Shown here in pieces: positions 13,862 to 53,466 of a stretch of DNA of 64,000 bases. Each line of letters begins with the position of its first letter. The first letter of the stretch is position 1. Both the position numbers and the translations under genes were made by a program. The notes beneath the pieces were generated by a model, which had not been told where the DNA came from, searched no databases, and saw only the letters and a list, made by a program, of their open reading frames with translations. This DNA comes from Vulcanimicrobiota bacterium (GTDB taxonomy: Bacteria > Vulcanimicrobiota > Xenobia > Xenobiales > JADMJV01): NCBI GenBank assembly GCA_050250895.1, contig JBFWNU010000002.1, forward strand, positions 64,001 through 128,000, read 5' to 3'.

Positions 13862-13940
13862 TTGGACCCCCCTTTATGTCGTAGTGCCCCCGATTATACG
13901 ATCCCTGTCAAGTCCCGACCGGCCTGCCGCCGACCGACCA

Positions 13941-14609
13941 CTAGCCTGGCGGCTGGACGCGGCGATACTCCACCTCGGGCCCGACCGGTCCGTCTCGTCC
14001 GACCTGCGTGAGTGCGAGCTTGTCTTCGGCTAGTCTCGTCCGGTAATAGCGTCCTCCAAAGTAACACTGGTCGCGGTTGATCTCGAAGCGGTCCGACATC
14101 AGCTCGCGCGTCCCCCGCACTCGCATCACGGCCACATAAGTGTCGGGTGGCATCAGTTCGAAGACCTCGGGAAATCCATCTGGGGCACCCGAGGCGGCCT
14201 CCCAGCGTCCGGCCAAGGAAGCCGCACCCATGTCCGAAGCCAGGGCACTCGAGCCGGAAAATAGGTCGGCGGCGAATTTCAGTTCAACCCCCCGGCCGTC
14301 GGGATAGGTCAAAGTGCCATGGTGTTTGTTGCCGTCACTCCAGACGACATTCAGCTTCCAGGTGCCGGCCAACCCTTCGTCCTTAGAATCGCTCATCACC
14401 ATTCGCGTTTCGACCGCGTCCCCCGTGGACTTCACCGCTTCCAACAAGGTGAGTCCCTTCGGGCTTTTATGCAGGACAAAGCCTCCTGGAGTGAAGCGCA
14501 CAATCACATCGTCGCTATACCACCGCCCCACTCGGTCCTTGTAGTTGTTTAGCGAACAACCACAAAGCAGAACTAGCATGGAGGCACATAGGAAACGACC
14601 GATCGACAT
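13941..14609 (-). CDS. lipoprotein, tandem paralog B
   Basis: Lipobox LCGC; highly similar to 14742..15410. Confidence 0.8.
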   Translation of the reverse strand: MSIGRFLCASMLVLLCGCSLNNYKDRVGRWYSDDVIVRFTPGGFVLHKSPKGLTLLEAVKSTGDAVETRMVMSDSKDEGLAGTWKLNVVWSDGNKHHGTLTYPDGRGVELKFAADLFSGSSALASDMGAASLAGRWEAASGAPDGFPEVFELMPPDTYVAVMRVRGTRELMSDRFEINRDQCYFGGRYYRTRLAEDKLALTQVGRDGPVGPEVEYRRVQPPG

Positions 14610-14741
14610 ATTTGCTATTTACGCCGCTAGGCCGGTTTACTCCTTCGCTTTCGCCACCGCCCAGGCTCACTTCCGAGCGCGAATCGTGGCATCCCGTTCA
14701 TTCCCGGAGACTCCCCCGAGGCCGCCACCTTCCAGCGCCCC

Positions 14742-15410
14742 CTAGCCGGGGGGCTTGACGCGGCGATACTCCACCTCGGGTCCGACCGGACCGTCTCGTC
14801 CGACCTGGGTGAGTTCGAGCTTGTCCTCGGATAGCTTCGTTTGGTAGGAGCGTTCCGCAAAGCGACATTGATCCCGGTTGATTTCGAACCGGTCGGCCAT
14901 CAGTTCGCGAGTGCCTCGAGTGCGCATCACGGCCACATAGAGGTCGGGAGCCATAAGCTCGAAGACCTCGGGAAAGCCGTCGGGGATTTCCGACACGGCC
15001 TGCCAGCGCCCGGCCAACGACGTCGCTGCCAGATCCGAGGCGAGCGAGGATGAGCCAGGAAACAGGTCGGCGGCGTACTTCAACTCGACCCCGCGACCGT
15101 CGGGATAGGTTAAAGTGCCGTGGTGCTTCCTGCCGTCAATCCAGACTACATCCAGCCTCCAGGTCCCGGCCAGGTCCGAGTCTTTCGAGTCACTTATCAC
15201 CAGCCGCGTCTCGACGGTGTCGCCTGAGGACTTGACGGCTTCGAGCAAGGTGAGGCCCTGCCGGCCGTTGTGGACGACATAGCCTCCGGGAGTGAACAGC
15301 AAGATCGCATCGTCGTTGTACCAGCGCCCCACTCGGTCTTTGTAGTTGCTCGGCGAACAGCCGCCAAGTAGCAGTAGTAGTGCGGCACATGAGAAACAAC
15401 GAAGGGGCAT
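14742..15410 (-). CDS. lipoprotein, tandem paralog A
   Basis: Lipobox LGGC; highly similar to 13941..14609. Confidence 0.8.
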   Translation of the reverse strand: MPLRCFSCAALLLLLGGCSPSNYKDRVGRWYNDDAILLFTPGGYVVHNGRQGLTLLEAVKSSGDTVETRLVISDSKDSDLAGTWRLDVVWIDGRKHHGTLTYPDGRGVELKYAADLFPGSSSLASDLAATSLAGRWQAVSEIPDGFPEVFELMAPDLYVAVMRTRGTRELMADRFEINRDQCRFAERSYQTKLSEDKLELTQVGRDGPVGPEVEYRRVKPPG

Positions 15411-15499
15411 CGAATGCTATTTACGCCGCTATGCCGCTTTACTCCTCCGCTTTCGCCACGGCCCTGGCTCAGTGCGTCGCGCCTTCTCCAGAAAGCGAC

Positions 15500-16250
15500 C
15501 CTTTCACACCGCGATTCTCGGGGTGAACCCCCAAAATCGACCTTCACCCCGCGATTTCTCGGGGTGAACCCCCGCCGCCCGCCCTCCCCGCCCCGCCGCC
15601 AGCCAGCCCGGCCGCCGCCCGCCAGCTGGTCCAGGGCCGCGGCCCTCCCCGCCAGCCGCCGCCCGGCCAGCCCGGCCGAGGTTGCCAGCGATTTCTCGGG
15701 GTGAACCCCCGAAATCGCCCTTCACCCCGCGATTTCTCGGGGTGAACCCCCGCCGCCCGCCCTCCCCGCCCCGCCGCCAGCCAGCCCGGCCGCCGCCCGC
15801 CAGCTAGCCCAGGGCCGCGGCCCTCCCCGCCAGCCGCCGCCCGGCCAGCCCGGCCGAGGTTGCCAGCGATTTCTCGGGGTGAACCCCCGAAAGCGACCTT
15901 CACCCCGCGATTTCTCGGGGTGAACCCCCGAAATCGACCTTCACCCCGCGATTTCTCGGGGTGAACCCCCGAAATCGCCCTTCACCCCGCGATTCTCGGG
16001 GTGAACCCCCAAAGTGACCTTCACCCCGCGATTTCTCGGGGTGAACCCCCGAAATCGCCCTTCACCCCGCGATTCTCGGGGTGAACCCCCAAAAGTGACC
16101 TTCACCCCGCGATTTCTCGGGGTGAACCCCCGAAATCGCCCTTCACCCCGCGATTCTCGGGGTGAACCCCCAAAAGTGACCTTCACCCCGCGATTTCTCG
16201 GGGTGAACCCGCGAAATCGCCCTTCACACCGCGATTCTCGGGGTGAAACC
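15500..16250. repeat. REP-like palindromic repeat array (about 14 cores, 40-41 bp period) with a duplicated 178-bp higher-order unit
   Basis: TTCACCCCG-cgatt(t)ct-CGGGGTGAA hairpins joined by near-identical linkers; 15542-15719 is repeated at 15720-15897. Confidence 0.93.
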
Positions 16251-16460
16251 CCGCCGCCCGCCCAACCCCCCGCCGCCCGCCAGCCCAGCCTGCCGCCCCG
16301 CCGCCCGCCAGCCAACCCAGCCGCCGCCCGCCAACCCCCCGCCGCCCGCCAAGCCAACCACCGACCCACCGCCCCGCCGCCCCGCCGCCCGCAGCCACGC
16401 CGAGCCAGTCCGCACGCCAAGCCAACCACCGACCCCGCAGCCTGCCGAACCCGCCCCCAA
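16250..16460. repeat. C-rich low-complexity tract
   Basis: Degenerate CCGCCGCCCGCCA units with very few T. Confidence 0.75.
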
Positions 16461-39437: not shown

Positions 39438-41732
39438 ATGCCGAGAATTCGCCTTTTCTTACTCCTTCTACTAGTGACCACCGCCCTGGCCCAGGCCCAG
39501 CCCGAGGTGGAAAGCCGGGTCGAAGCTTTGCTGAGCAAGATGACCACCGAAGAGAAGCTGGGCCAGCTTCAGATGTTCGGCGGAGTCGGCGAGGGCGATT
39601 TGCCCCCCGAACACATCGAGCTACTCAAGCAAGGCCGTCTGGGCACCACCCTCAACATCCGGGGGGCGGCCCGGGTCAACCGGTTGCAGAGGATCGCGGT
39701 CGAAGAGACGCGCCTCGGCATTCCGCTCATCTTCGCCTTCGACGTGATTCACGGCTATCGCACCGTCTTTCCCATTCCGCTGGGCGAAGCGGCCAGCTTT
39801 GACCCCGAGGCGGCTCGTTTGTCGGCCGAAATCGCCGCCCGCGAAGCCACCGCCGATGGCCTCAAATGGACCTTCGCACCCATGGTCGACATCGCCCGCG
39901 ATGCCCGCTGGGGTCGGATCTCTGAAGGAGCGGGCGAGGACCCCTACCTCGGTCGGGCCCTGGCCGCCGCCCGGGTGCGCGGCTTTCAGGGCGACGACTA
40001 CAGCCAGCCCGACCGGGTGGTGGCCTGTGCCAAGCACTGGGTGGCCTATGGGGCGGCCGAAGCCGGCCGTGACTACAACACCACCGACGTCAGCGAGCGG
40101 GTGCTGCGCCAGGTCTACTTCCCGCCCTTCAAAGCGGCCGTCGAGGCCGGGGTGGGCACCTTCATGAGCGCTTTCAACGATCTCAACGGCACGCCCACCT
40201 CGGGCAACCACTGGACTCTGACCGAGGTGCTGCGCGACGAGTGGGGCTTTGACGGGGTGGTGGTCAGCGATTATGAGTCGGTCAAGGAGATGCTCAACCA
40301 TCGCAATGTCGACGGCGAGGCCGAAGCGGCCCGGGTGGGCTTGAGCGCCGGAGTCGACATCGAGATGGTCAGCAGCCTCTACAACCAGCATCTGCCCGCC
40401 CTGCTGGCCGACGGACGGCTGCCCATGGACGTGCTCGATGAGGCCGTGCGTCGCATCTTGCGCCTCAAAGTGAGGCTCGGGCTGTTCGAGAATCCTTACT
40501 GTCAAGAAGGGCTGGTGGATAGCATCTTGCTGGCTCCCGCCCACCGGGCCGCCGCCCGCAGAGTGGCCGCCAGTTCGCTGGTCTTGCTCAAGAACGACAA
40601 TCACACCCTGCCGCTGGCCCCGGTCAAGACCCTGGCCGTAATCGGTCCGCTGGCCGACGACCCCTCGGCCATCCTGGGCTCGTGGGGCGGCGACGGTCAC
40701 CCCACCGATTCGGTCACCATCCTCGAGGGTCTCAAAGCCGCTGTAGGACCCAGCACGCGGGTGCTCCACGCCAAAGGTGTGGCCATCGACACGGTCGGCG
40801 CGCGCGGTAACTTTCACGACGCACCGATCATGGCCAGCGCAGGCGGCAGCAACGTGGGCACCGTGGGCGGCATCGCCGTCGAGCGGCTGGCCACCACGCC
40901 CACCGCCGCCGGCGACTTCGAGCAGGCCGTGGCTACGGCCCGCCAGGCCGACTTCGTGGTGCTGGTCGTGGGCGAGACGGCGGTCCAGAGTGGTGAGGCC
41001 GCCTCGCGCACCGAACTGGGCTTGCCCGGTCGCCAACTCGAACTGGTGCAGGCCGTGGCCGCCACCGGCAAGCCCTATGCGGTGGTGCTGATGAATGGCC
41101 GGCCTCTGGCGGTGCCGTGGCTGGCCGAGCACAGTCCGGCCATTCTCGAAGCCTGGTTCCCTGGCACCGAGGGCGGCCACGCCGTGGCCGACGCCCTGGT
41201 CGGCAAAGTCAATCCCGGCGGCAAACTGCCCGTGACCTTTCCGCGGGCAGTGGGTCAGGTGCCCATCTACTACAACCACAAGAGCACCGGCCGGCCGCCC
41301 AGCCGCGAAAAGTATACCTCGAAGTATCTCGACCTGCCGGTCACCCCGCTCTATCCCTTCGGTCACGGCTTGAGCTACACCACCTTCGCGCTTTCCAACC
41401 TCAAGCTCGACCAGACCAGTCTGCCCGCTAACGGCCGGCTGGCCGTCAGTGTCGAGGTGACCAACACCGGCCAGCGAGCCGGTGATGAAGTGGTCCAGCT
41501 CTATCTGCAGGATGTGGCCTCCACCGTCACCCGGCCGGTCAAGGAGCTATGCGGCTTTCGACGCGTCAGCCTCGAGCCGGGCCAGAAACAGACGGTGCAG
41601 TTTAACCTGGGTTCGGCCGAGCTGGGCTTCTATGACCAGAAGATGAATTGGGTGGTCGAGCCGGGTCGCTTCAAGCTGTGGGCAGCTACCAGCTCGGAGG
41701 GCGGCCTCGAGACCACCTTCGAGGTGCGCTAG
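39438..41732 (+). CDS. bglX: periplasmic GH3 beta-glucosidase
   Basis: Signal peptide; DVIHGY, RDARWGR, CAKHW, VVSDY; C-terminal Fn3-like domain. Confidence 0.93.
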   Translation: MPRIRLFLLLLLVTTALAQAQPEVESRVEALLSKMTTEEKLGQLQMFGGVGEGDLPPEHIELLKQGRLGTTLNIRGAARVNRLQRIAVEETRLGIPLIFAFDVIHGYRTVFPIPLGEAASFDPEAARLSAEIAAREATADGLKWTFAPMVDIARDARWGRISEGAGEDPYLGRALAAARVRGFQGDDYSQPDRVVACAKHWVAYGAAEAGRDYNTTDVSERVLRQVYFPPFKAAVEAGVGTFMSAFNDLNGTPTSGNHWTLTEVLRDEWGFDGVVVSDYESVKEMLNHRNVDGEAEAARVGLSAGVDIEMVSSLYNQHLPALLADGRLPMDVLDEAVRRILRLKVRLGLFENPYCQEGLVDSILLAPAHRAAARRVAASSLVLLKNDNHTLPLAPVKTLAVIGPLADDPSAILGSWGGDGHPTDSVTILEGLKAAVGPSTRVLHAKGVAIDTVGARGNFHDAPIMASAGGSNVGTVGGIAVERLATTPTAAGDFEQAVATARQADFVVLVVGETAVQSGEAASRTELGLPGRQLELVQAVAATGKPYAVVLMNGRPLAVPWLAEHSPAILEAWFPGTEGGHAVADALVGKVNPGGKLPVTFPRAVGQVPIYYNHKSTGRPPSREKYTSKYLDLPVTPLYPFGHGLSYTTFALSNLKLDQTSLPANGRLAVSVEVTNTGQRAGDEVVQLYLQDVASTVTRPVKELCGFRRVSLEPGQKQTVQFNLGSAELGFYDQKMNWVVEPGRFKLWAATSSEGGLETTFEVR

Positions 41733-42014
41733 CGCCGCGCCGCAGGGGTGACTTCAATGAGCGTCACCCCGGACGCGGCTTGACGGGAACGACGAGAACG
41801 CAAGTCCAGGACGTTAGACTGTTGGGGTAGCGACGTTCTCGTCATTCCCTATCGGCGCTACGCGCCGCGCCGCTGGGGTGACTTCAATGAGCGTCACCCC
41901 GGACGCGGCTTGACGGGAACGACGAGAACGCAAGTCCAGGACGTTAGACTGTTGGGGTAGCGACGTTCTCGTCATTCCCTATCGGCGCTACGCGCCGCGC
42001 CGCTGGGGTGACTA
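41726..42014. mobile_element. head-to-tail array (2 full + 1 partial) of a 130-bp structured element
   Basis: 41755-41884 is repeated at 41885-42014; sub-terminal IR GTCACCCC/GGGGTGAC; homolog at 53108-53244. Confidence 0.8.
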
Positions 42015-43022
42015 GCCAAAGATGATGCGCCATAGCCAGGGCAAGAGATCCTTGAGTGGATAGAGCAGCCACATCGTCAACAGGGGAGCCAGCCACAGGT
42101 TGTGGTTGTCGAGCTGGCGCCCCAGGCGGTGGAGCATTTTCTTGATGGTGGTATGGGGGCAGACGGGACGAATGTCGCCACTGAGCACGATCTCTAGCTC
42201 TTTACGCAGCTCGGCGATGTTGGCAAAACGCTGCGCGGGGTCGCGCTTGAGCGCTCGCGAGATGATGCGGCTGGTTTCGCGTGGCACCCGGCCCTGAACC
42301 GGGTGCACGTGCGACTCGGCCGCGGGTGGGTCGTGGTAGAGGATCGAAGTCAAGAGCTGGCTGCGATTGTCGCTGGGGTGCGGCTTCTCCAGCGCGAACA
42401 GCTGATAGAGCAGCACGCCCAGCCCGTATTGGTCGGTGGCTTCGCTGGTCACCCCCTCGAGTTGCTCGGGGGCGGCGCATTCCATGGTGCCATAAAACTC
42501 GCCCGAAGAGTCCTCGTCCGAACTCTCTTTGACCAACCCCCAGTCCATCAGCCAGACCTCGCCGTGGCCGCCCAGCATGACGTTGTCGGGCTTGATATCG
42601 CGGTGGAGAAAGCCGCGTTCGTGGGCAAAGATCAGGGCGTCACACAGGGCCATGGCGATCTGCAGGCGGCGGCTGAAGGTCATCTCTTCGTGGGTGGCTC
42701 GGTCACCCGCTCTCAGACGGTCGATCACCGCCCCCAGAGTCTCGCCTTCCACCAGCTTGAGCACGAAAAACGGGCTGCCGTCCTCACCCTGGCCAAACTC
42801 GTAGACGGGCGGGATGCTAGGGTGCTCGAGGCGCCCGGTGACCCGGGCTTCGAGCACGAAGCGCTGCTGGGCCTCGTCGCTCTGGCTCAATTCGCCCCGC
42901 AGCGACTTGACCGCCACCTCGCGATCCAGGCGAGGGTCGTGGGCTCGATAGACCACTCCCATCCCGCCACGGCCAAGCTCATGAACCTCGTCAAACCGGT
43001 TGAAAAGAACGCCTTCCTGCAT
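42012..43022 (-). CDS. Hanks-type Ser/Thr protein kinase
   Basis: LGRGGMGVVY, VAVK, HRDIKPDN, DWG, APEQ; start placed at MQEGV. Confidence 0.92.
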   Translation of the reverse strand: MQEGVLFNRFDEVHELGRGGMGVVYRAHDPRLDREVAVKSLRGELSQSDEAQQRFVLEARVTGRLEHPSIPPVYEFGQGEDGSPFFVLKLVEGETLGAVIDRLRAGDRATHEEMTFSRRLQIAMALCDALIFAHERGFLHRDIKPDNVMLGGHGEVWLMDWGLVKESSDEDSSGEFYGTMECAAPEQLEGVTSEATDQYGLGVLLYQLFALEKPHPSDNRSQLLTSILYHDPPAAESHVHPVQGRVPRETSRIISRALKRDPAQRFANIAELRKELEIVLSGDIRPVCPHTTIKKMLHRLGRQLDNHNLWLAPLLTMWLLYPLKDLLPWLWRIIFG

Positions 43023-43211
43023 CCGCCATCCATTCCAGGCCCGGCGCGGAGCGCCTGCCGGCAGGCCGATGTAACGTCCCCCGGCCAGAGCGAAGACTGG
43101 CCGGGTAAACTCCGCCAGGCCGGGGTCACGAGTAATGAGCGAAGTGGAAACACAATCTTCAAGATCTCGCAGCCCCCGAGCCGATAGGCTGGCCCCGGAG
43201 GATAGACATAA

Positions 43212-43799
43212 GTGATTCAACCCTGTACTCTCACAACCCCCACCCCCACCCCCCGGCGCGCCTCGGCGCCGCCGCCCACATCCGAGGGGCTGGGTGACTG
43301 CTTTGAAAAGGCGGCCCGCTGGGTGGCCGGCAAAGTGGTCGGAGTGGTCTTCGGCACCAGCGGTCTGGTGGCCAACGCCGCCGCTGGCGGTGCCCGCGGC
43401 ACCCTGCACGCGGCCCGGGTCGAAAGTAACCACCAGGAACTTCTATTTCAGGCCGGCATGACGGCCAACATGGCCGCCCTGGGCGCCCTCGGCGGCGGTC
43501 CCGCCGGAGCTGTCCTGGGCGTGGCCGGTGGCCACCTGCTGTGGCGAATTCAGGGCGAGAAAGTGCGCGAGCGCGTGCTCACCAAGTCGGACCAGTGGGT
43601 CGACAAGGTGCTCGAGAAACTGCCCGGCGACCCCGACCAGGCCGGCCGCCTCAGAAGAGTGGCTAACGGCGTGGTGGGTGAGGTGGTCGGCACGGCCGCC
43701 GGAGCCGTCGGCGGCACCTTCGCCATGTTCGAGCAAGGCGAGCAATACGGCCAGTCGCTGTTTGACGAAATGACCGGCAAAGAGCCTCCCCAGGGCTAA
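43212..43799 (+). CDS. glycine-zipper hydrophobic-helix protein
   Basis: GGAGG RBS; GxxxG-rich helices; resembles each half of 10749..11846. Confidence 0.75.
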   Translation: MIQPCTLTTPTPTPRRASAPPPTSEGLGDCFEKAARWVAGKVVGVVFGTSGLVANAAAGGARGTLHAARVESNHQELLFQAGMTANMAALGALGGGPAGAVLGVAGGHLLWRIQGEKVRERVLTKSDQWVDKVLEKLPGDPDQAGRLRRVANGVVGEVVGTAAGAVGGTFAMFEQGEQYGQSLFDEMTGKEPPQG

Positions 43800-44215
43800 G
43801 CGTTCAACATCGCGCGGAGCTGCGACGGGGTGTAGACCGGCAGCGGCGAACCCACGAAGCCGCTCAGGTCGCGAGTTACGATAGCCTCGACCCTGACCGC
43901 CTGGCCGCAGGCAATCTGCACATCGTCTTCATAATCGGCACCCTCAAGGGCCTGGGCCGCTGCGAGCACGAGCCGGTCGACCGGGGCGATCTCGAAAGTC
44001 TCGAGGCAAACAACCACCGCCTTCCGGGCCCGCTCGCGGTCAGTCAACTTGCGGGCAACATAGTAGATGTCGGTGAGGGTCGAGGCCGGTAGGCAGGCCA
44101 CCAGTCGCGATTCGTCGATCGCTCGCCAGAGAGCCGCGGCGTCTTCAAGCCAGGGGGAGCGGGCTAGCAAGACATCGAGTACGACGTTGGTGTCGAACAG
44201 AACGCGAAGCGTCAC
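43796..44215 (-). CDS. PIN-domain toxin
   Basis: VLFDTNVVLD, DYEDDVQ, IVTRD. Confidence 0.92.
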   Translation of the reverse strand: MTLRVLFDTNVVLDVLLARSPWLEDAAALWRAIDESRLVACLPASTLTDIYYVARKLTDRERARKAVVVCLETFEIAPVDRLVLAAAQALEGADYEDDVQIACGQAVRVEAIVTRDLSGFVGSPLPVYTPSQLRAMLNA

Positions 44216-44457
44216 TTCTCGAGGCGGCGCTGGGCCAAAAGGCGCTCGATCGCCTCGTCGTCGGGCGGTGCCTGGGGTCCAGCCAGCAAACCGAGGGCCC
44301 TTTCGAAGGTGGGGCTGCGTTGTTCGTCCTGTTCGACCAGGTAGGCGATGTAGTCCACCAGTTGGGACTGGCGACCCCGCTCGACCACATAGCCTCGCTT
44401 GCGTGCAGCTTCGACGAGACGCCGTTTTAGCTCAGCGGGAAGGTAAATGGAACTCAT
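44212..44457 (-). CDS. putative antitoxin
   Basis: 81 aa with RHH-like N-terminus (SIYLPAELKRRL); overlaps the PIN gene start. Confidence 0.75.
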   Translation of the reverse strand: MSSIYLPAELKRRLVEAARKRGYVVERGRQSQLVDYIAYLVEQDEQRSPTFERALGLLAGPQAPPDDEAIERLLAQRRLEK

Positions 44458-44467
44458 TGTCGAGATT

Positions 44468-44497
44468 ATTCTATAGTTTGATTGGCGGGGGAGTCAA
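44468..44497 (-). promoter_or_regulatory. sigma-70 promoter of the TA operon
   Basis: TTGACT-N18-TAGAAT. Confidence 0.65.
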
Positions 44498-44818
44498 GGC
44501 GGCAGCCGGCCGACCCGGCCGAGCAGTCGGTCGGCTCTCTGCTTGAGGAATGGCGGCAGCGCGCTGGACCCAAGAATTTCTAGAAATTTCTCGGCAGCCG
44601 CGGTTTTCCCCCGAATCCACCTCCACGATCAACCATAGCCGTGAGAGCGCCACAGCTTCGCTCTGAGCCATCTCTGCGTAAAATTTGGTTTCGACCTCAT
44701 CACGAGGCCGCCGAGGCCCGGACATCATCTCTCGTGGCGCCATTGGATCCCATAACCAAGCCGTTTTTGGCTGTTCGCTTTTTTGCTCGAACGGACCCCA
44801 AGCAGCTAAAATCAGAGG

Positions 44819-45952
44819 ATGAACCCTCTTCAATTCACCCGTCAAAACCTCGTCGAACTCGAAGCCCTGGATCTCCATCAACTCGTTCAACAAGCAGCCG
44901 TCAACCTGGTCCGGCATCGTCTGCTCCTTGGACGCTGTCTGCTAGCTTTGCAGCTCACCGGTCATTACCGCGACTACGGATGCAGCAGCCCCATCCACTA
45001 CGCCATTCGTGTGCTGGGCCTGAACAAGAAAGAAGCCACTACCTGTCGCCGAGTGGCCTTCCGCCTTGAAGACCTGCCGCTGCTCACTGCCGCCGCCGAG
45101 TCGGGCCACCTCGGCTGGGCCAAGTTGCGTGAAATCGTCAGCAAGGCCAGCCCCGAAACCGAAGCCCTGTGGCTGGAGCTAGCCGCCCGTTACAACGCCA
45201 CCACCATCGCTCGACTGGCCGCAATCACTCCCGACGGTGGCCTTCCGGGCCAGGCCAAGCCCACCGAAGCCGAATGCGAAGAACTCACCCTGCGTCTGAC
45301 CCCAGAGAATCGCGAACTGGTTCGCCTCGGCTTGCAATCGCTCTCTCTCGAACTGGGTCGCAAAGTCGAGTTCAGCGAGGCCATCGGCTTGCTCTTCGCC
45401 GAACGCCTGCAGGCTCGTCCGGTCACCGAGAGAGATGTCGAGAAGATGCGGGCTCGGGCCACCGCCGTCGTCGAATCGCACGAGCGCCGCCTGGCCGAAC
45501 CGCTGGCCCAGGCCCACAAGGTGGCTGTCGAGTTGGGCCTGGCTCATGGTCCCATGCGGGACGAGGAACTCTTCGAGGCCACCACCGCGATGACCACTGA
45601 GGATTGCCCCGAGGCTGATGCCCAGCTCGTCTGTCGAGCCAAGCCTCACTGGCAGCCTTCCAACCAGCTCGCCTTCAACCCCGAGGCCCGCGGCCTCACC
45701 CCCGCCCAGACCGAGTGCCTCAAGATTCGCGACTGTTACTGCTGCCAAACCCCCGACTGTCCCAACCATCTCTGGCTTCAAGCTCACCACATCCGCTACT
45801 ACTCCGCCGACGGCCCGACCGTGCCAAAGAATCTGGTCTTTCTCTGCTCTGCCTGTCACCGCAACGTCCACGAGGGATACCTGCGCATCGAAGGCGAGGC
45901 TCCTGATGATTTGACCTTTGAGGATGGGGAAGGCAGGAAGTTCGAGGATTGA
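44819..45952 (+). CDS. HNH endonuclease with DUF222-like N-terminal region
   Basis: GHLGWAKLREI; RDCYCCQTPDC...AHHI...GPT...NLVFLCSACHRNVH. Confidence 0.88.
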   Translation: MNPLQFTRQNLVELEALDLHQLVQQAAVNLVRHRLLLGRCLLALQLTGHYRDYGCSSPIHYAIRVLGLNKKEATTCRRVAFRLEDLPLLTAAAESGHLGWAKLREIVSKASPETEALWLELAARYNATTIARLAAITPDGGLPGQAKPTEAECEELTLRLTPENRELVRLGLQSLSLELGRKVEFSEAIGLLFAERLQARPVTERDVEKMRARATAVVESHERRLAEPLAQAHKVAVELGLAHGPMRDEELFEATTAMTTEDCPEADAQLVCRAKPHWQPSNQLAFNPEARGLTPAQTECLKIRDCYCCQTPDCPNHLWLQAHHIRYYSADGPTVPKNLVFLCSACHRNVHEGYLRIEGEAPDDLTFEDGEGRKFED

Positions 45953-46122
45953 GACGCTGGGTCCGTGTCCCCGTTGGTCCGCGCGGGTTTTTCTAATCGG
46001 AAGCTCTCTGAGTAGGCGAACGTTACTTTAGGCGACGCTGGGCCAAAAATTGCGGCATGGTCCATCGGGCAACGTGCGACTCCCGTGGCACAGGGGCTTG
46101 ACCAGGCTGCTAAGATCCGGTC

Positions 46123-47403
46123 ATGGATCAATTCGAACTCGAACAGGTCCTCAGCCAGGCGCGGGAGCTTCTGCCCGACGCGCAGGCTGCCTATGGCCGT
46201 TTGCGCGGGCTGCTGGATTACCCCGGTCAGCTCGACAGCGCGGCTGCCTTTCGGGCCGCCTTCGACGCCTTCGCCCTGATTTGCGACGCTCGCCCAACGC
46301 CTGATCTCGCCCAACTCGCCCGCGCCGCTGACCCCCAAGACCCCAATAGCCTTTTTGCTTTCGCCCATCGGGCCTACGAGTATGGACTGCACGCGTTCGC
46401 GGCCACCTGTCTGGCCCGAGCCCATCAGCTCGACCCGGGTGGGGATTTCCTGGCCGAGCTAGTAGCCAACCTCGAGGAGCTTCGCCTCAACCGTGAAGCC
46501 GTCCGTTTGCTGCAACAGAGCCCCGTTGACCAGGACCCCTGGCTGGCCTATCTTCTAGGCTTTCACGCTTTGATGAGCGGAGACACCGAGCTGCCTCATC
46601 GCCTGCTACCCCGGCTGCTCGCCCAAAACGACGACAACCTGGCCCTGGCCGTAGTCCAGTTGCAAGCCATGGTCGAGCGCGCCCGCCGGTTGGCTTGTAG
46701 CGAGCTGCGCGGCTGGCATCTCGCTCTCAACGCCAGCCTCCTGTTGTTCGTCAGTCCGGATGGATTCGACCGTGGCATGAATGGTCGTTACGCCTTCGTC
46801 CAGGACTACTACGCCCAATGCCGCCAGGGGCTCGTCTTGCTGGGCGAGGCGCTCGACGCGCTTGGGCTGTCCGTCCCCCGGGTCTTCGCTCTCCAGGACC
46901 GCTCCAGTCAGATCCTGGCCGAGGCGGCGGCCGCCTTTTTCTCGGCGCCGCTGGCTGCCTGGCCGTCGGAGCTGCCCGGCCTGGCGGTAGCCTACGACCT
47001 CGACCGTGTGGACAACCGCGACCTGGAGCCGCTGGCTCACCATCGCCCTGGCCAGCTCCTTTTCGCTCACGCCAGCTGCTGGACCAGCCCCTTCCCGATG
47101 GCACCTGACTTCACCACCTTTCTCTACCAGTACAACTCCGCCCCCTGGGATGAGCGCATGCGGTTTAGCCCGGACGGCGAGAGCGAGATGCAGCCCGCCG
47201 ATCCCTCGCCCGCCGAAGAGTTGGGACGCCGGATCCTCGACAGTCAGGACGAGTGGCCCAGCCACGGCGGAGTCGAGCCTCTGCTCGAGCTGTGCGCCGC
47301 CGCTCGCCGGTTGCCCCAGGAGTGTACCATCGGCTGCTATCGGCAAGATGGGTTACGCACCCGCCAACGCGCCGGCTCGCCGATCTCCAGCAACTCGTTC
47401 TAG
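46123..47403 (+). CDS. TPR-like hypothetical protein
   Basis: Helical repeat N-half; TAAGAT-N6-ATG upstream. Confidence 0.7.
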   Translation: MDQFELEQVLSQARELLPDAQAAYGRLRGLLDYPGQLDSAAAFRAAFDAFALICDARPTPDLAQLARAADPQDPNSLFAFAHRAYEYGLHAFAATCLARAHQLDPGGDFLAELVANLEELRLNREAVRLLQQSPVDQDPWLAYLLGFHALMSGDTELPHRLLPRLLAQNDDNLALAVVQLQAMVERARRLACSELRGWHLALNASLLLFVSPDGFDRGMNGRYAFVQDYYAQCRQGLVLLGEALDALGLSVPRVFALQDRSSQILAEAAAAFFSAPLAAWPSELPGLAVAYDLDRVDNRDLEPLAHHRPGQLLFAHASCWTSPFPMAPDFTTFLYQYNSAPWDERMRFSPDGESEMQPADPSPAEELGRRILDSQDEWPSHGGVEPLLELCAAARRLPQECTIGCYRQDGLRTRQRAGSPISSNSF

Positions 47404-48752
47404 ACACTCAATCCCGGTGCAAACCAGAGCCGGAAGGTGGTTCCCACTCCTAGCTCGCTGTCGACCTCGACCCGACCGCCCTGGGCCAGCATCAGCCGGC
47501 GCACGATGGCCAGGCCCAGCCCGCTCCCACCGTCGCGGCGAGCCCGGCCCTGGTCGACCCGATAGAAGCGGTCGAAGATCCGGGGCAGTTCGCCAGCCGG
47601 AATGCCCGCGCCATCATCGCGCACGCTCAGGCACCCATCTTCATAGGCGACCTCTACCATGCCCCTCGAGGCGGCTCGGGCATTGTCGATCAGGTTGGAG
47701 AGCACGTGCCGGAGCGCTACCGGGTGGGCCAGCACATGGGCCGAGCCCACCCGCGCGGTCACGCCAAGTTCATCCACCACCTCGGCCAACTCCACCCACT
47801 CTAGCGGCAAAGGGCCTTCGAAGCGGTGCAACGTGAGCAAGTCATGCACCAGCTTCTGCAGGCGCAGCTGTTCTTTTCGAACCAGCCGCAGCAAGTCGGG
47901 ACCACCGCCTTCGTCTAGAGCGTCCAAAAGAGCGGCCATGCAGGCCAGCGGGGTTTTCAGCTCATGCGAGGCATCGGCCACGAAGCGACGCTGGCTTTCA
48001 TCGCGCCGGGCCAGACGAGTGGCCATTTCTTGAAAGCTAGACACCAGCATCCGCAGCTCCGCGCAGCCTCCGCCCAGGCGAGGGTCGGCAAAGTCACCCG
48101 AGGCGATGCGACACGACCAGGCCGCCACCCGCGCCACCGGCGCGGCCACCCAGCGTGAGAGGGCAAAGGCCAGCATGGTGGCCACCGTCAGGCAGCTCAG
48201 CAGGAGTCCGGCCAGGCTCTCTTGCCAGCGCAACTGCTCGAGGCGCAATCCCACCAGGGAGCGACTCAGGTGCACGGAGCCGCCCCGGCAGGGAACCACC
48301 ACCGTCAGGGTCTTCACGGCCCGCAGTTCGCCATGCCACGGACTCTCGGGCGGCAGGTCACTCATCACTACCGTCATCCCCTCTCCCCGGGCTCGGGCTA
48401 TCGCCGGCGACTCGAAACGAGAGGTAGTGAAAGCGTTGGGGCGAGCCCCCGGACGCCGTCCCACCCAGGCCAGAGCCGTGCCTCCGCCGCTATCGTCGAC
48501 CACCCAACCGTCGCGGTCCACCAGCCGGATGCGAGTTTCGAAGGCCAGGCCCAATCTTCGCAATTGGCGCGAAAGAGCGGCTGAGTCATGGTCCCAAAGA
48601 CCGGCCACCAGCCCGGCTACGGCCGTCGACTCGGCTACCACCGCCCGCTCGGCCTGCTCTTGCTGGCGCTCGAGCAACACATAACCCGGCACCAGGAGGC
48701 AAAAGGCGATCAAAGCCAGATAAGAGATGAAGAGGCTCCGTCCTAGACTCAC
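47400..48752 (-). CDS. HAMP sensor histidine kinase
   Basis: DASHELKTPL, NLIDNA, FDRFYRVD, GGSGLGL. Confidence 0.93.
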   Translation of the reverse strand: MSLGRSLFISYLALIAFCLLVPGYVLLERQQEQAERAVVAESTAVAGLVAGLWDHDSAALSRQLRRLGLAFETRIRLVDRDGWVVDDSGGGTALAWVGRRPGARPNAFTTSRFESPAIARARGEGMTVVMSDLPPESPWHGELRAVKTLTVVVPCRGGSVHLSRSLVGLRLEQLRWQESLAGLLLSCLTVATMLAFALSRWVAAPVARVAAWSCRIASGDFADPRLGGGCAELRMLVSSFQEMATRLARRDESQRRFVADASHELKTPLACMAALLDALDEGGGPDLLRLVRKEQLRLQKLVHDLLTLHRFEGPLPLEWVELAEVVDELGVTARVGSAHVLAHPVALRHVLSNLIDNARAASRGMVEVAYEDGCLSVRDDGAGIPAGELPRIFDRFYRVDQGRARRDGGSGLGLAIVRRLMLAQGGRVEVDSELGVGTTFRLWFAPGLSV

Positions 48753-49417
48753 TCGACCTCCAGTCGGTAGCCCACCCCGCGGACCGTCACCAACATGCCC
48801 TCGGGCAGTTTCTCGCGCAGCCTTCGCACTGCCATGTTGACGGTGGCGTCATCGCCCGAATAGCGCCAGCCCCAGACCTCGCGCAAGAGTTGCTGGCGCG
48901 GCACCGCCACCCCCGGCCGCTCCAGCAGATACTCCAGTAGCCCGTACTCTCGCGGAGCCAGCTCGAGCGGCTGCTGGTCCAACCACACTCTTCGGGCTGC
49001 TCGATCCAGCCGCAACCGCCCGGCCGCCAGGCCACTGGTCTGTTCTCCGGTGAGACGTCGATAGCGCCGCAGGTGAGCTCGAATGCGGGCCAGCACCTCA
49101 CGGGTGGCAAAAGGCTTGGTGATGTAATCGTCGGCCCCGACCTCCAACCCGATCACCTTATCGACCTCGTCATCGAGCGCCGTCAGCAACAGAATAGGCC
49201 GATCATAGCCGTCCGCCCGCAGGCTTCGGCAAGCTTCCAGGCCATCCAGGCGGGGCATCAAGATGTCCAACAAGATGGCGTCAAAGACCGACGAGGCCGC
49301 CAGCCGCAGGGCCTGCTCGCCGTCCAAGGCCGTCCGCACCTCGAAGCCGTTGGCCTCGAGGCTAAAACGCAGACCGTGCAGCAGCGACTCCTCGTCGTCG
49401 ACCAGCAAGATTCTCAC
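48749..49417 (-). CDS. OmpR/PhoB family response regulator
   Basis: LLVDDE, LDILMP, GADDYITKPF, TVRGVGYRL. Confidence 0.95.
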   Translation of the reverse strand: MRILLVDDEESLLHGLRFSLEANGFEVRTALDGEQALRLAASSVFDAILLDILMPRLDGLEACRSLRADGYDRPILLLTALDDEVDKVIGLEVGADDYITKPFATREVLARIRAHLRRYRRLTGEQTSGLAAGRLRLDRAARRVWLDQQPLELAPREYGLLEYLLERPGVAVPRQQLLREVWGWRYSGDDATVNMAVRRLREKLPEGMLVTVRGVGYRLEVE

Positions 49418-50949
49418 GAGTGATTCCGCCAGGCCGCATAGCGCCGCACGATTTCGTGAAACTCGCGACGGTCCGGCTCCCGGCAGTCCATGGTGGCTTG
49501 CACCACCCGGTCGAGACTACCACCCTCGTGGCGTAAGACCATTCCGAATTCCGCCACGGCGCTGGCGAAACGAAAGTCCTCCGAAGCCTCGTCGAGGGTC
49601 ACTCCATAGTCGGTCAGCACGCCGTCGATCAACTGACTTTCCCACCCACCGGGCTGCTTATAGCGGATCTTCAGGCGAGCCACCCGGCCCGGCCCCGAGA
49701 CGGGCTCGAACTCATACAAGGCTGTAACCGATTGCCCCGAACCCATCTCGCCTGCGTCCTTGCGGTCGTCGGCAAAGTCCTGGTTCTCCAAGACGCGGTT
49801 CGAATAGCCCACCAGGCGATAACTGCGCACTCGCTCGCGGTCGAACTCGAGCTGCAGCTTGACGTCCTGGACCACCGTCACCAGCGTCCCCCCGGCCTGC
49901 TCCACCAGCACGCGTCTGGCCTCGCTCAGACTATCGATGTAGGCATAATTTCCGTTGCCGTGGTCGGCCAGTTTTTCGAGCCCCGAGTCATTGAGGTTAT
50001 CGCGTCCAAAGCCCAGAACCGACAGAGCCACGCCCGACTCTCGCATGCGCTCGATTAGCTCAATCAGCGCCTCGTCGTTGCTCGCGCCCACGTTAAAGTC
50101 ACCGTCGGTAGCCAGAATCACCCGATTCACTCCATCTTTCACGAAGTTCCGGCGGGCGACGTGATAGGCCAGGGCTATCCCCTCGCCGCCATTGGTCGAG
50201 CCGCCGGCCTCGAGATGCTCGATAGCCTCGAGAATCGCCCCTCTTCGCTCGGCCTCGGTCGAATCGAGCACCAGCCCGGCCGCCCCCGCGTAGACCACTA
50301 CGGCCACCCGGTCGTGAGGGTTCAAATGCTCCACCAGGGTGGCCAGACCGCGCTTGAGCAGCGGCAGCTTGTCGTCGGATTGCATCGAACCCGATACGTC
50401 GATCAGGAAGACCAGGTTGCAGCGGGGCAGTTGCTGCGGATGCATCTCGCGAGCCTTCAGACCGATGCGCAGCAATCGCTTTTCGGGGGCCCAGGGACAG
50501 TCCGCCACCTCCCCGGTGATGGCTAACGGCAGGTCTCGCACGGGAGCCGGGTAGTCGTAGTGAAAGTAGTTGAGCATCTCTTCAATGCGTACGGCCGCTT
50601 TGGGCACCGGTTGGCCGTCGCGCAAAATGCGGCGGACGTTGCTGTAGCTGGCCGTATCCACATCCACCGAGAAGGTCGAGACCGCCTCTTGGGCTACCGC
50701 CTGAACAGGGTTGGGCGGCGACCAGTCATAGCTGGGTCCATCCACACGTTCGATCAAGCCCTGCACGGCCGTATACTGCGGATAGTTCGGCGGCAAAGGT
50801 TGCACCTTGAAGCGGCCCGGGACGGGCAAGTCTCCCAGGCCCCACCAGTTGGCCGCGACCTGAACGGCCGGGTCGACCCGCGACCACAACACCAGACCGA
50901 CTACCAGGGCCAGCCCAAACAAGGTAAGGAATACAGCATTTTTTTTCAT
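49414..50949 (-). CDS. membrane-anchored vWA domain protein (YfbK-like)
   Basis: STFSVDVDTASY, MIDAS DVSGS, GGSTNG, LATDGDFNVG. Confidence 0.92.
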   Translation of the reverse strand: MKKNAVFLTLFGLALVVGLVLWSRVDPAVQVAANWWGLGDLPVPGRFKVQPLPPNYPQYTAVQGLIERVDGPSYDWSPPNPVQAVAQEAVSTFSVDVDTASYSNVRRILRDGQPVPKAAVRIEEMLNYFHYDYPAPVRDLPLAITGEVADCPWAPEKRLLRIGLKAREMHPQQLPRCNLVFLIDVSGSMQSDDKLPLLKRGLATLVEHLNPHDRVAVVVYAGAAGLVLDSTEAERRGAILEAIEHLEAGGSTNGGEGIALAYHVARRNFVKDGVNRVILATDGDFNVGASNDEALIELIERMRESGVALSVLGFGRDNLNDSGLEKLADHGNGNYAYIDSLSEARRVLVEQAGGTLVTVVQDVKLQLEFDRERVRSYRLVGYSNRVLENQDFADDRKDAGEMGSGQSVTALYEFEPVSGPGRVARLKIRYKQPGGWESQLIDGVLTDYGVTLDEASEDFRFASAVAEFGMVLRHEGGSLDRVVQATMDCREPDRREFHEIVRRYAAWRNHS

Positions 50950-50969
50950 AGGCCGAGCATAGGCCTGAC

Positions 50970-51000
50970 CCCGATAACCGTTCCATCACGGTTTCATAAC
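50970..51000 (-). promoter_or_regulatory. 11-bp-period triple repeat, putative OmpR-family box
   Basis: Minus strand GTTATGAAA-cc-GTGATGGAA-cg-GTTATCGGG upstream of the vWA-RR-HK operon. Confidence 0.5.
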
Positions 51001-51091
51001 GGTGGTGTCTCTCGACTCGTAACATCTCGGCAATATTCGGAGCAGGTTTTCAATAAGATCCTCTAGCCCGACCCTCTACGCTGAAGTTGCG

Positions 51092-52138
51092 ATGATTAGC
51101 CAGGTAGCCCATTCCAGGTCTGTGACCAGAACGCAGTTGCGCGCTCAGCCGGCCTCCAGGCCCGACCCCAGCGGGGCCAGAGATAGGGTCACACTGTCGC
51201 CATACCAAGCCGCCGATACCGTTCCCGACGGACCGCGTCCCGCCCCGGCCACACCGAGCCAGACCCAGTATGGGCCCGCTCCTGGCGGCCCGGCTCGAGG
51301 ATTGGTGGGGGAACCGAGCAGCAAATGGAGCGCCCCCGATGCGCACGGCTTAAGATCCCGCACGCTGCATTCAGCCGACGGGAAAGAAGGCTGGTATCAG
51401 TGGAAGTCCCCGGGCCAGCGGCGCGATTACTTTAGCCGGAGCTACAAAGACAAGGGACGCGAGTTCTACGAAGTCCTCAAGGGCAACCAGCACAGTCGCA
51501 TGCAGCTGCTCGGCCAGGCCTTCCGCAATGCCAAACGCGAAGGCTCGGTGCGCCTCACCGACAAGCAAGGCAAAGACCTCGGAGTCGAGGTCCACGGCAA
51601 ACTCACTCCCGCCCAACAAGACCAGCTTCGCAAGGCGATCCAGGATTTGCCCCCGGCCCTGCGCAAATACGCGCGCTCGATCGCTGTGGTCGACAACCTG
51701 GGCCAGCAGGGAACCCGCCACAACGGGCACACCCGCTGGGAATCTCACACTCTCGGCAAAACCGATAGCAAAGGCCGGATCGCCCTCGACCGTCGTCTGC
51801 TCAAAGACCCGAAGAAGCTCTTCGAGACGCTTGCCCACGAGGCCGGTCACGGACTGCAGGTCGACAAGGCGCGCAAGCTCGGCCCCGAGTGGGGCAAGAA
51901 GAGCGTCTCTGGCTATGGCAACACCGACCCCTACGAAGATTATGCCGAGACTGTGGCCTATGTGGCCAAGAACTGGAAAAGCCTGGTCAATGGTGGCCAC
52001 GGAGGCCTCTTGCGCACCGCCGGACAGCCCATCCCCGGCGCCGGACAACGCTCCTCAGACATCACTCGGCGCCCTTCGGCAACCAAGATTCTGCAAGTTC
52101 TCCGGGCCATGGGCTGGCAATCGAGCGGGCAGAATTAG
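51092..52138 (+). CDS. HEXXH zincin-like metallopeptidase, paralog 1
   Basis: LAHEAGH...SVSGYGNTDPYEDYAE. Confidence 0.8.
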   Translation: MISQVAHSRSVTRTQLRAQPASRPDPSGARDRVTLSPYQAADTVPDGPRPAPATPSQTQYGPAPGGPARGLVGEPSSKWSAPDAHGLRSRTLHSADGKEGWYQWKSPGQRRDYFSRSYKDKGREFYEVLKGNQHSRMQLLGQAFRNAKREGSVRLTDKQGKDLGVEVHGKLTPAQQDQLRKAIQDLPPALRKYARSIAVVDNLGQQGTRHNGHTRWESHTLGKTDSKGRIALDRRLLKDPKKLFETLAHEAGHGLQVDKARKLGPEWGKKSVSGYGNTDPYEDYAETVAYVAKNWKSLVNGGHGGLLRTAGQPIPGAGQRSSDITRRPSATKILQVLRAMGWQSSGQN

Positions 52139-52454
52139 GCTGTCCGCGACTGACCACGCTCACTCTCAGCGGCGTCATCTCCGGCGGGACCGTCCGCACT
52201 CAGGTCGACCTGCGAAGAGCTGTCGGATGGTCCGCCGGGCGACGAGCTCTTCGAGAGGCGACCACCGCCCTGACTACCGAAGCCACTCGGCCGACCAGCC
52301 CGAAACCGCCGTGCCGTCGATGGCCCTCCATCTCAACTCGCAGCAGAGCTCGCGGCGGCGGGCCGGTCCCCCAGAGGACGGCTGTCCGGCGGCGCTTCCC
52401 GGAGAAATTTCAAAAAGACTTCGGCCCAGAGCGAAAACAGGCCCTGGGCGACCC

Positions 52455-53466
52455 AGCTGGGCCAAGCGCGAGATCGCCAGCAAAGCCACGCCTGAGACCG
52501 AAGAGCTTTGGCTCGAATTGGCTTCGCTGTATTCCACCTCGGTCGTCCCGCGCCTGGTGGCCGCCACTCCCAAAGGTGGCCTACCTGGTGAGCTTCCTTC
52601 CACCAAGATTGAGAACGAGGAGATCACCTTACACCTCGACCCGGAGACGACCGAGCCCTCTGTGCTGCTGAAGTTGGTCCTCCATTCCCCTTCGTTCGAG
52701 CTGGGGCGCAAGGTCGAACTCAAAGAGGCCCTGGCCCTCTTGTTGGCTCAGCGCCTGCAGACCGCTCCCGTCACCGACCAAGACCTCGAGGCAATGCGGG
52801 CGCGAACGGCCGCGGTGGCGGCCTCGCACCAGCGCAAGCTGGCCGGCCCAATTCAGAGGGCGCACGAGTTGGCTCAGGCGCTGGGCCTTCGTCCCCCGGG
52901 GGACGAGTTTTTCAAAGCCACGACCGCGGTGGACGGGGAGGAGTGCCCAGGCAATTCCGGGGTCGAGCGGGCTCGCCGGGCCAAGGCGCACTGGAGGTCT
53001 CGCCGCGGCTGAGCTTCAACCCCGACGCGCGCGGGCTCACGCCGGCTCAGACCGAGGCCTTGAAGATTCGCGACTGCTACTGCTGCCAGACTCCGGACTG
53101 CCCTAACCCAATGGGCGTCCCCCCGGCCGCGGCTTGACGGGAATGATTCGAACGCACGTTCACGAGGTTTAGCTAGAACGTCGGCGACGTTCACATCAAT
53201 CATCCCCTGTCGTCGCTACGCGACGCGCCGCTGGGGGGGACTTACACATCTGGCTCCAATCGCACCCCATCCGTTTCTTCACCCTCGGCGGCCTGACCGT
53301 GCTGGCGAACTGGATCTTCCTCTGCACCCGGTGTCATCGCAATGTTCACGATGGCTTTCTCTTCATCGAAGGAACAGCTCCCGATGGCTTGACCTTTCGT
53401 GATCGCGAGGACGTGAATTCGAGCGTTAGACAGCGGGGGGTCGAAAGTGGCATACTACGAATATGA
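52455..53466 (+). pseudogene. decayed second copy of the DUF222-like HNH gene
   Basis: Colinear with 44819..45952 from WAK(L)REI onward; 5' part missing, frameshift near 52995, 137-bp insertion after CPN, resuming at HIWLQ...LCTRCHRNVH. Confidence 0.9.
53108..53244. mobile_element. 137-bp structured insertion without target-site duplication
   Basis: Removal restores tgc cct aac|cac atc tgg; IR GTCCCCCC/GGGGGGAC; homologous to the 41755-41884 unit. Confidence 0.88.

Follow-up and report, generated by a model that had tools for sequence, protein, structure and literature searches.

The window analysed here is a stretch of 64,000 nucleotides from the genome of a Vulcanimicrobiota bacterium (C2:64001-128000 of G000, an assembly of 9.5 Mb in 17 contigs with 63% G+C and 99.6% completeness), and it carries a short non-coding element in two places, as an array between two convergent genes and as a single copy inside a pseudogene of the HNH family. 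The element is an orphan small mobile hairpin repeat, in which ends like those of the IS1111 group of insertion sequences (IS) are combined with a hairpin layout like that of REPINs, the paired forms of repetitive extragenic palindromic (REP) sequences. The array (41726-42013, + strand), read from the sequence and from a repeat scan, consists of a partial right end followed by two head-to-tail units of 130 nt, as the initial annotation had described. The partial copy is 28 nt long (41726..41753, +), matches unit positions 101-130 and contains the 3' arm of a side hairpin, GCGCCGC, the right inverted repeat GGGGTGAC, which is a repeat variant specific to this array, and a final T. The first full unit (41754..41883, +) is made up of a 3-nt junction, TCA, and 127 model positions (ATGAGC ... 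GACT), and scores 119.3 bits with nhmmer and 144 bits with a covariance model; its RNA fold has an energy of -64.9 kcal/mol (z -4.05) on the + strand and of -68.7 kcal/mol (z -6.24) on the - strand. The second full unit (41884..42013, +) is identical to the first over the model, with equal scores over the 127 positions, and the two are 99% identical in the register of the repeat scan. The right inverted repeat GGGGTGAC, a 10-nt spacer TTCAATGAGC and the left inverted repeat GTCACCCC together make up a junction hairpin or core site (41745..41770, +), which is present again where unit 1 meets unit 2 (41875-41900) and whose arms covary among copies (columns 11-12 with 130-131 of a 20-copy alignment).

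On the left of the array, a GH3 glycosidase gene (39438..41732, +; assigned by Pfam) ends in ...TFEVR*, and the left edge of the array overlaps its TAG stop codon (41730-41732). On the right, a convergent Ser/Thr kinase gene (42012..43433, -; likewise from Pfam) has a stop codon (CTA, 42012-42014) to which the final two bases of unit 2, CT, belong. Both C-termini end exactly as in homologs from related genomes, that of the kinase having the same length as its homolog, and the array thus occupies the entire gap between two natural stops.

The second copy in the window is diverged and single (53108..53244, +; 137 nt, 115 bits with the covariance model), and it interrupts CCTAAC|CACATC between an Asn and a His codon of a disrupted HNH-family gene, with no duplication and a 1-nt (C) ambiguity of the boundary. 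By tblastn with an intact paralog, the 5' part of this gene lies at 52275..53107 (+), with a frameshift near 52998, and the 3' part, which resumes at the His codon, at 53245..53409 (+); the gene also has a His-to-Pro change. The intact paralog in the window (44819..45952, +; PF01844 HNH) has the corresponding empty site, CCCAAC|CAT, between 45766 and 45767, and an uninterrupted site (AAC|CAT or AAC|CAC) is found in 10 HNH paralogs of the genome, this one included, which confirms the exact position between two codons that had first been reported. A common start, CAATGRGC, and a common GCGGCTTGACGGGAA, both pointed out from the beginning, are present in array and single copy alike. The initial statement that the window holds no transposase stands for its 49 open reading frames (ORFs) of at least 150 aa, none of which matched a transposase or recombinase family in a Pfam scan. 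The HNH-endonuclease family itself (about 377 aa) has at least 12 paralogs in the genome, with 63-84% DNA identity, at 44819-45952 and 52275-53409 of the window and in 10 other places, and its intact window copy adjoins a PIN_3-domain gene (43799-44431).

In G000, successive rounds of nhmmer raised the number of hits from 32 to 38 and finally to 39, which fall into 25 loci. With a covariance model trained on 20 distinct copies, 32 full units were retrieved, and a 13-mer scan added two further solitary right ends. Three types of locus can be told apart. The first comprises single near-complete units within genes, namely two HNH paralogs, an RHS-repeat gene, of which there are three near-identical copies, and a YhgA/Rpn-like family (a weak Pfam match, PF04754, under the curated cut-off) with insertions at three different positions. 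The second comprises extragenic arrays of 1-3 full units that follow a partial right end of variable length, and the third solitary right ends of 30-60 nt. The occurrence of two or three head-to-tail full units at 9 of the 25 loci shows that the tandem form is no assembly artefact. The family accounts for several pseudogenes (HNH, Rpn-like, RHS-family) and for spurious ORFs that read through arrays.

Between loci, the identity of copies reaches 89.8% at most (median 77%), whereas units within one array are identical or nearly so, and the partial right ends have the repeat variant of their own array, for example GGGGTGAC, GGGCTGAC and GGGGGGAC. Since no two copies at different loci exceed 90% identity, the family looks old. 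It also looks largely quiescent now; identical tandem units beside such divergence fit local amplification better than transposition of multimers. The simplest reading is that of an old family whose arrays would grow and shrink locally, identical units arising by unequal recombination of a partial with a full right end. Retro-insertion, which would leave an intact 3' end, a truncated 5' end and multimers, matches the shape of the arrays; it was set aside because the reverse transcriptase family PF00078 gave no matches and because eight single insertions have near-complete left ends.

At one locus (C3:389826-390455) what looks like a partial end belongs to a unit that about 530 nt of a second repeat family have split, and is its 3' part. 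This second family (...CCGCGGTTTATTTCTCAGGCGC CCCACTGGCGAGCCACACCGACC...) is also non-coding, measures about 150-500 nt and occurs at C1:1538900-1539306, C3:389863-390398 and at least 30 other places in G000. It has the 13-mer CGCGCCGCGCCGC in common with the element, adjoins two of the arrays and has no match in Rfam. The copy of the element at C1:3792878-3793004 is atypical: 11 nt of its left repeat region are directly repeated in the flank to its left (GGCCCTCACCC GGT GGGCCTCACCC).

The ends of the element are marked by two sub-terminal inverted repeats, GTCGGCCCgGC and GCtGGGCCGAC, which are perfect over 8 bp and match at 10 of 11 positions when extended, and which lie 10-12 nt apart at tandem junctions. 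From empty sites, the left terminal extension beyond these repeats measures about 7-10 nt and the right one 2-4 nt; their lengths are not fixed (left/right 9/3 at the first occupied HNH gene, HNH1, 8/3 at the second, HNH2, 7/4 at the Rpn-like site and 10/2 at C1:3788105). Insertions are clean and without target duplication, as judged from the 10 empty HNH paralogs and from empty paralogs for two further sites, and these comparisons support the description of a non-coding, non-autonomous mobile element that makes no target-site duplication. In being small, non-coding, structured, non-autonomous and dispersed in multiple copies, the element is like the classical MITEs (miniature transposable elements with inverted repeats) of bacteria, but it differs from these in lacking a target-site duplication and in having inverted repeats that are sub-terminal and not terminal.

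For the IS1111 group, the published account gives sub-terminal inverted repeats of 11-13 bp, with a left extension of 7 or 6 bp and a right one of 3 bp (PMC11187229). The resemblance to this description is real, as the initial annotation had proposed: both have sub-terminal repeats, both insert site-selectively and without target-site duplication, and the ends of both lie 10-12 nt apart when joined; the short asymmetric extensions, longer on the left, are similar in pattern, though not of fixed length in the element (PMC11187229). However, the element differs in that it contains no DEDD transposase and none with matching ends was found in the genome, in that its repeats are perfect over 8 bp (10 of 11) and not over 11-13 bp, in that its copies do not have one common target and no target-complementary segments were found in them, and in that its arrays start with truncated right ends (PMC11187229).

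Choice of site is best seen in the HNH family. In a tree of the gene flanks, HNH2 pairs as sister with the intact window copy (support 1.0) and HNH1 groups with two other empty copies in a different clade; the flanks of HNH1 and HNH2 are 62.7% identical, the inserted elements 75.2%. Because the occupied genes lie in different clades and the elements are more alike than the flanks, the two paralogs were struck at the same nucleotide, in the same orientation, by related copies of the element; otherwise, precise loss would have to have happened several times. On the left, the RHS site and the two occupied HNH sites all end in CC(C/T)AAC, which over these three sites is suggestive of a target preference. 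Taken together, the comparisons indicate that the element was once mobile and site-selective, and repeated insertion at one nucleotide of the HNH family amounts to sequence-selective insertion without a visible guide.

The explanation offered first was that of a miniature IS1111/IS110 cassette, made up of ends and a seekRNA or bridge RNA, in which the variable loop would guide a DEDD transposase acting in trans. The published seekRNAs have two short RNA segments complementary to the target and sizes of 82-96 nt, and the element, whose end geometry and lack of target duplication are like those of that group, has about 105 nt between its repeats, which could fit an RNA of that size (PMC11187229). 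A precedent exists in ssr9 of ISPpu9 (IS110 group), a small RNA-gene module that rides an IS110-family transposase and forms its own minicircles (PMC12288879). Like the element, ssr9 is short and non-coding, has IS-like end boxes at its borders and spreads selfishly with a transposase that is produced elsewhere; however, its end boxes are those of the resident IS, whereas for the element no IS with the same ends was found, and it recombines at an AG dinucleotide, whereas the single insertions of the element have only 1 nt in common (PMC12288879). Two strikes at one HNH site by the same sub-lineage would also suit a guided reaction. Against a guide, the longest words shared between the central region and the copy's own flanks at 21 loci had means of 3.9-4.9 for self and 4.15-4.6 for non-self pairings, and column-wise 5-mers of eight single insertions matched the reconstructed targets in at most 2 of 8 copies per column, a level reached or exceeded by 500 of 500 permutations, both comparisons being of low power. 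Matches of loop or element to its own flanks are thus not above those of mismatched pairings at the 21 and 8 loci, and the idea of a guide-RNA-only cassette finds no support; the match of CACATC to the right flank of the HNH copy, which had been offered in its favour, is at chance level, 6-mers being common to 12-22% of non-self loop/flank pairs. Moreover, the central loop holds conserved motifs and not free guide segments, no transposase with these ends is found in G000, and no IS110-family transposase gene was found in a second genome with a related repeat (G089, see below). A guide cassette is accordingly considered very unlikely.

The fold of the element was derived with RNAalifold from 20 distinct copies and is a three-way junction. 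P1 is a closing helix formed by the two sub-terminal inverted repeats and lengthened by GCGGC/GCCGC, P2 is a long helix that encloses a loop of about 36 nt, and P3 is a small side hairpin, GGCGC-TNC-GCGCC (CGGCGC-TTC-GCGCCG). P1 and P2 together make one long imperfect hairpin out of two inverted arms of about 38 nt, one of which bears P3. In the alignment of the 20 copies 96.4% of the stem cells are paired, changes on both sides are seen in 10 of 32 pairs (matched by 1 of 500 shuffles), and the covariation score is 0.179, against 0.074 after shuffling (0 of 500 shuffles reach 0.179) and 0.025-0.060 with the partners slid; fold z-scores of single units range from -2.9 to -6.2. The covariation of the stems, first proposed from the copies in the window, is therefore real over 20 distinct ones. 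The accompanying claim that the central loops differ completely does not survive the larger alignment, in which the loop is the most variable part and yet has several invariant or near-invariant positions. All mismatches in P2 are A.C on the + strand, equivalent to G.U on the - strand, and the consensus fold is predicted at -59.6 kcal/mol for the - strand and at only -45.8 for the + strand. This hints at folding of the - strand, a hint tempered by P1, which tends the opposite way, and by the small number of independent events. No Rfam 15 family reached its gathering score anywhere in the window (best E-value in the array 3.5), and a scan for promoter and intrinsic-terminator consensus sequences gave 0 sites of each.

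Most extragenic copies lie at gene ends. Of the 25 loci, 15 are outside long ORFs, and at 11 of these 15 the right end (GACT) reaches 1-2 nt into the stop codon of the opposite-strand gene. The abutting genes are ordinary ones by Pfam (Era, PFK, AhpC, SDR, a TraB-family protein, a TPR protein, a response-regulator cyclase and the kinase of the window), and in four of four flanking genes checked the natural C-terminus is kept; the PFK gene stops at the residue at which its ortholog in the same genus does, and the TPR gene within one residue of its ortholog. On the other side, the partial copy follows directly after TAG-C at seven loci, and at six of the seven this TAG is the stop of an ORF of at least 120 aa. 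In a genome of the same genus (G001), one such pair of genes has orthologs that are likewise convergent neighbours, about 580 nt apart and with no element between them. This fit could reflect insertion into stop codons shared by two genes, or compaction after insertion. A target duplication of CTAG or TAG was considered for the arrays, in which TAG or AG stands on both sides at 5-7 loci; such a duplication is not needed, since the keeping of both stop codons could also explain the pattern, and the single intragenic insertions show none. With most extragenic copies exactly at the 3' ends of convergent genes, the hairpin would probably be part of 3' untranslated regions, and its exact fit at natural stops offers a testable link from selfish DNA to RNA structure at 3' ends.

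Convergent ORF pairs that overlap by exactly 4 nt are themselves common in G000 (219 of 1521 in an approximate ORF set, where neighbouring distances have 0-25 pairs each), and the overlaps read CTAG in 127 cases, TTAG in 54, CTAA in 24 and TTAA in 14.

Position at gene ends also bears on an explanation by function, under which the element would be an RNA or DNA structure of 3' ends (a stabiliser of mRNA, a barrier to read-through or a protein-binding site) that is selected locus by locus and spread mainly by recombination. The placement of the right end on convergent stop codons, the four preserved C-termini, the near-complete pairing of the stems despite 77% median identity, the same direction of the better-folding - strand and the abutting gene, and the occurrence of P3 and a 13-mer in the second repeat family would all be in line with such a role. 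However, such a role leaves unexplained why HNH, Rpn-like and RHS-family genes have been destroyed by clean insertions, the scans gave no promoter-like or intrinsic-terminator-like signal, and no Rfam match was obtained. A locally selected function is on this evidence distinctly improbable as the whole account.

The covariance model had no match in 40 relatives, of which 1 belongs to the same genus and 14 to the same family. DNA identity to relatives is only 65-81%, and the genes that flank the window array are not neighbours there. Among 150 genomes sampled across the phylum, a single one, G089 (2.6 Mb, of a different family), gave two hits, of 41 and 31.7 bits. These copies have the same architecture, with P1 GTCATCCTG/CAGGATGAC and P2 TCGAAGGAC/GTCCTTCGA differing in sequence yet complementary, and with P3 identical in sequence. 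A hairpin arm of about 30 nt (GTCATCCTGAGC..GTCGAAGGAC) has at least 300 matches in G089, where tandem runs of left arms are followed by runs of right arms in the manner of nested palindromes, for example at L080 1500-1700 and L081 1400-1760. Similarly, the 17-mer of P3 rises above a reversed-pattern control only in G000 (21 copies) and G089 (6 copies) among 401 sampled genomes; in 20 other genomes of the phylum it occurs once or twice, which is the level of that control. Should the repeats of G000 and G089 be homologous, their fold would have persisted through many compensatory changes, without either of the usual classes of enzyme. The 12-mers of the G089 arms were met in the literature only in unrelated primer sequences. 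Pattern scans gave one match in a collection of genome contigs and three in metagenome contigs, all attributable to chance in coding DNA and scoring at most 13.8 bits, and the right-end pattern had no match in viral contigs. A viral-contig match (L051, 27.7 bits) was set aside, being seeded by an exact 20-mer and lacking P3. For a 601-nt query no sequencing run was listed, nor any RNA data set.

The usual explanation for small structured repeats is a resident transposase, and a search for an IS110 or HUH transposase gene with the ends of the element, one of the checks first recommended, was negative on both counts. G000 has one IS110-family transposase gene (PF01548 and PF02371; C10:4711-5859), whose own inverted repeats, ATGGGTGGACC (11 nt perfect; 15 nt at 93%, nested), are unrelated to those of the element, and the element was not found at this locus with nhmmer at maximum sensitivity or with the covariance model run with filters off. 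The Y1_Tnp family (PF01797), which covers the RAYT transposases of REP sequences and those of IS200/IS605, gave no match in G000 or in G089 (0 in each); in the control, 6 of 14 known genomes were matched. The RVT_1 family (PF00078) had 0 matches in G000 and the TnpB zinc-ribbon family none, with positive controls in both cases; a search for Y2_Tnp (IS91) carries no weight, since its control matched zero genomes. The IS to which the IS110-family gene belongs spans C10:4600-6220 (locus L031, 1321-2924), with about 325 nt of non-coding DNA 3' of the transposase gene, an arrangement that is IS1111-like, with a likely seekRNA region.

REP sequences, REPINs and bacterial interspersed mosaic elements (BIMEs) consist of inverted pairs of palindromic units that form long hairpins, stand mostly between convergent genes, occur in tandem clusters and lineage-specific families, and are mobilised by RAYTs. 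The element is like them in its inverted-pair hairpin, its mainly extragenic position (15 of 25 loci), its tandem clusters and its lineage-specific sequence. It could accordingly be a REP/REPIN or IS200/IS605-type element, moved as folded single-stranded DNA by an HUH Y1 transposase (RAYT or TnpA) that has since been lost. The tandem and inverted arrays of arms in G089 are BIME-like, the extragenic copies lie between convergent genes, insertion makes no duplication, and the A.C mismatches of P2 together with the difference in folding energy suggest that one strand folds. However, no Y1_Tnp was found in a genome that is 99.6% complete nor in G089, although control genomes were positive, and TnpB was likewise not found; there is no conserved tetranucleotide 5' of all insertions, the left flanks being different, and orientation shows no bias with respect to GC skew. 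Moreover, the element is of low copy number in G000, with only 32 full copies, has an extra side hairpin that makes the fold a three-way junction, and includes some precise intragenic insertions, all of which set it apart from REPINs. For a palindrome-associated (PATE) or omega-RNA cassette of IS200/IS605, the lack of any Y1 TnpA or TnpB match in G000 and the differing left flanks are likewise points of difference. Descent from a lost Y1 system is therefore quite improbable.

What is preferred, with a confidence only a little above even, is that the copies make up one local family of a non-autonomous, selfish DNA element akin to both REPINs and MITEs. Since neither a cognate DEDD transposase nor a RAYT nor any guide signal has been found, the element is separated by their defining features from both the IS1111 group and REPINs. 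In the mechanism proposed for it, the unit would be delimited by a break within the 10-12-nt spacer between the sub-terminal inverted repeats, which would adjoin each other in a circle or a tandem copy, and it would be joined to its target without duplication, at 1-2 nt of microhomology. The enzyme would be provided in trans, the geometry of the ends being closest to recombination of the IS1111-type DEDD kind, and may recognise either a folded single strand or the repeat-spacer-repeat junction, and such recognition of fold or junction would be why the stems covary.

Several results weigh against a selfish element of this kind. Its cognate enzyme was not found: the sole IS110-family gene of G000 has unrelated ends, the searches for Y1, reverse transcriptase and TnpB families were negative as given above, and G089 has neither a Y1 nor an IS110-family transposase gene despite its at least 300 arm copies. 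Near-identical copies at different loci are not seen, and current mobility is thus not demonstrated. There is also no single common target, unlike for IS1111-type elements, single insertions being found at no fewer than five different flanks, of which only the HNH site recurs. On their left side, arrays are cut off at points that vary within the unit, and at three loci the cut falls in 5-6 nt of microhomology with the flank (GCGCTA, GCTGG, GGCGC), a pattern that would not be expected of a simple two-ended site-specific reaction. The orientation of copies relative to GC skew (16 against 11) gives no sign of a mechanism that acts on single strands of the lagging strand.

A bolder possibility, which is rated as unlikely, is that the element and its covarying homolog in G089 stand for a class of hairpin repeats that spreads without RAYT/Y1, DEDD, TnpB or reverse transcriptase enzymes, by way of an unrecognised enzyme that would read P3 (CGGCGC-TTC-GCGCCG) and join the right end onto convergent stop codons, many of which overlap as CTAG in G000. 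With two unrelated genomes that have a covarying three-way-junction repeat and in which the usual enzymes were not found, a comparison of gene content could point to a new mobilising activity.

Elsewhere in the window, 13935-16458 is dense in direct repeats, which adjoin ORFs without a Pfam match. They include an 800-nt duplication (13935-14234 / 14736-15035, 79%), two 178-nt units at 98% and about nine C-rich units of 40-41 nt (15830-16296).

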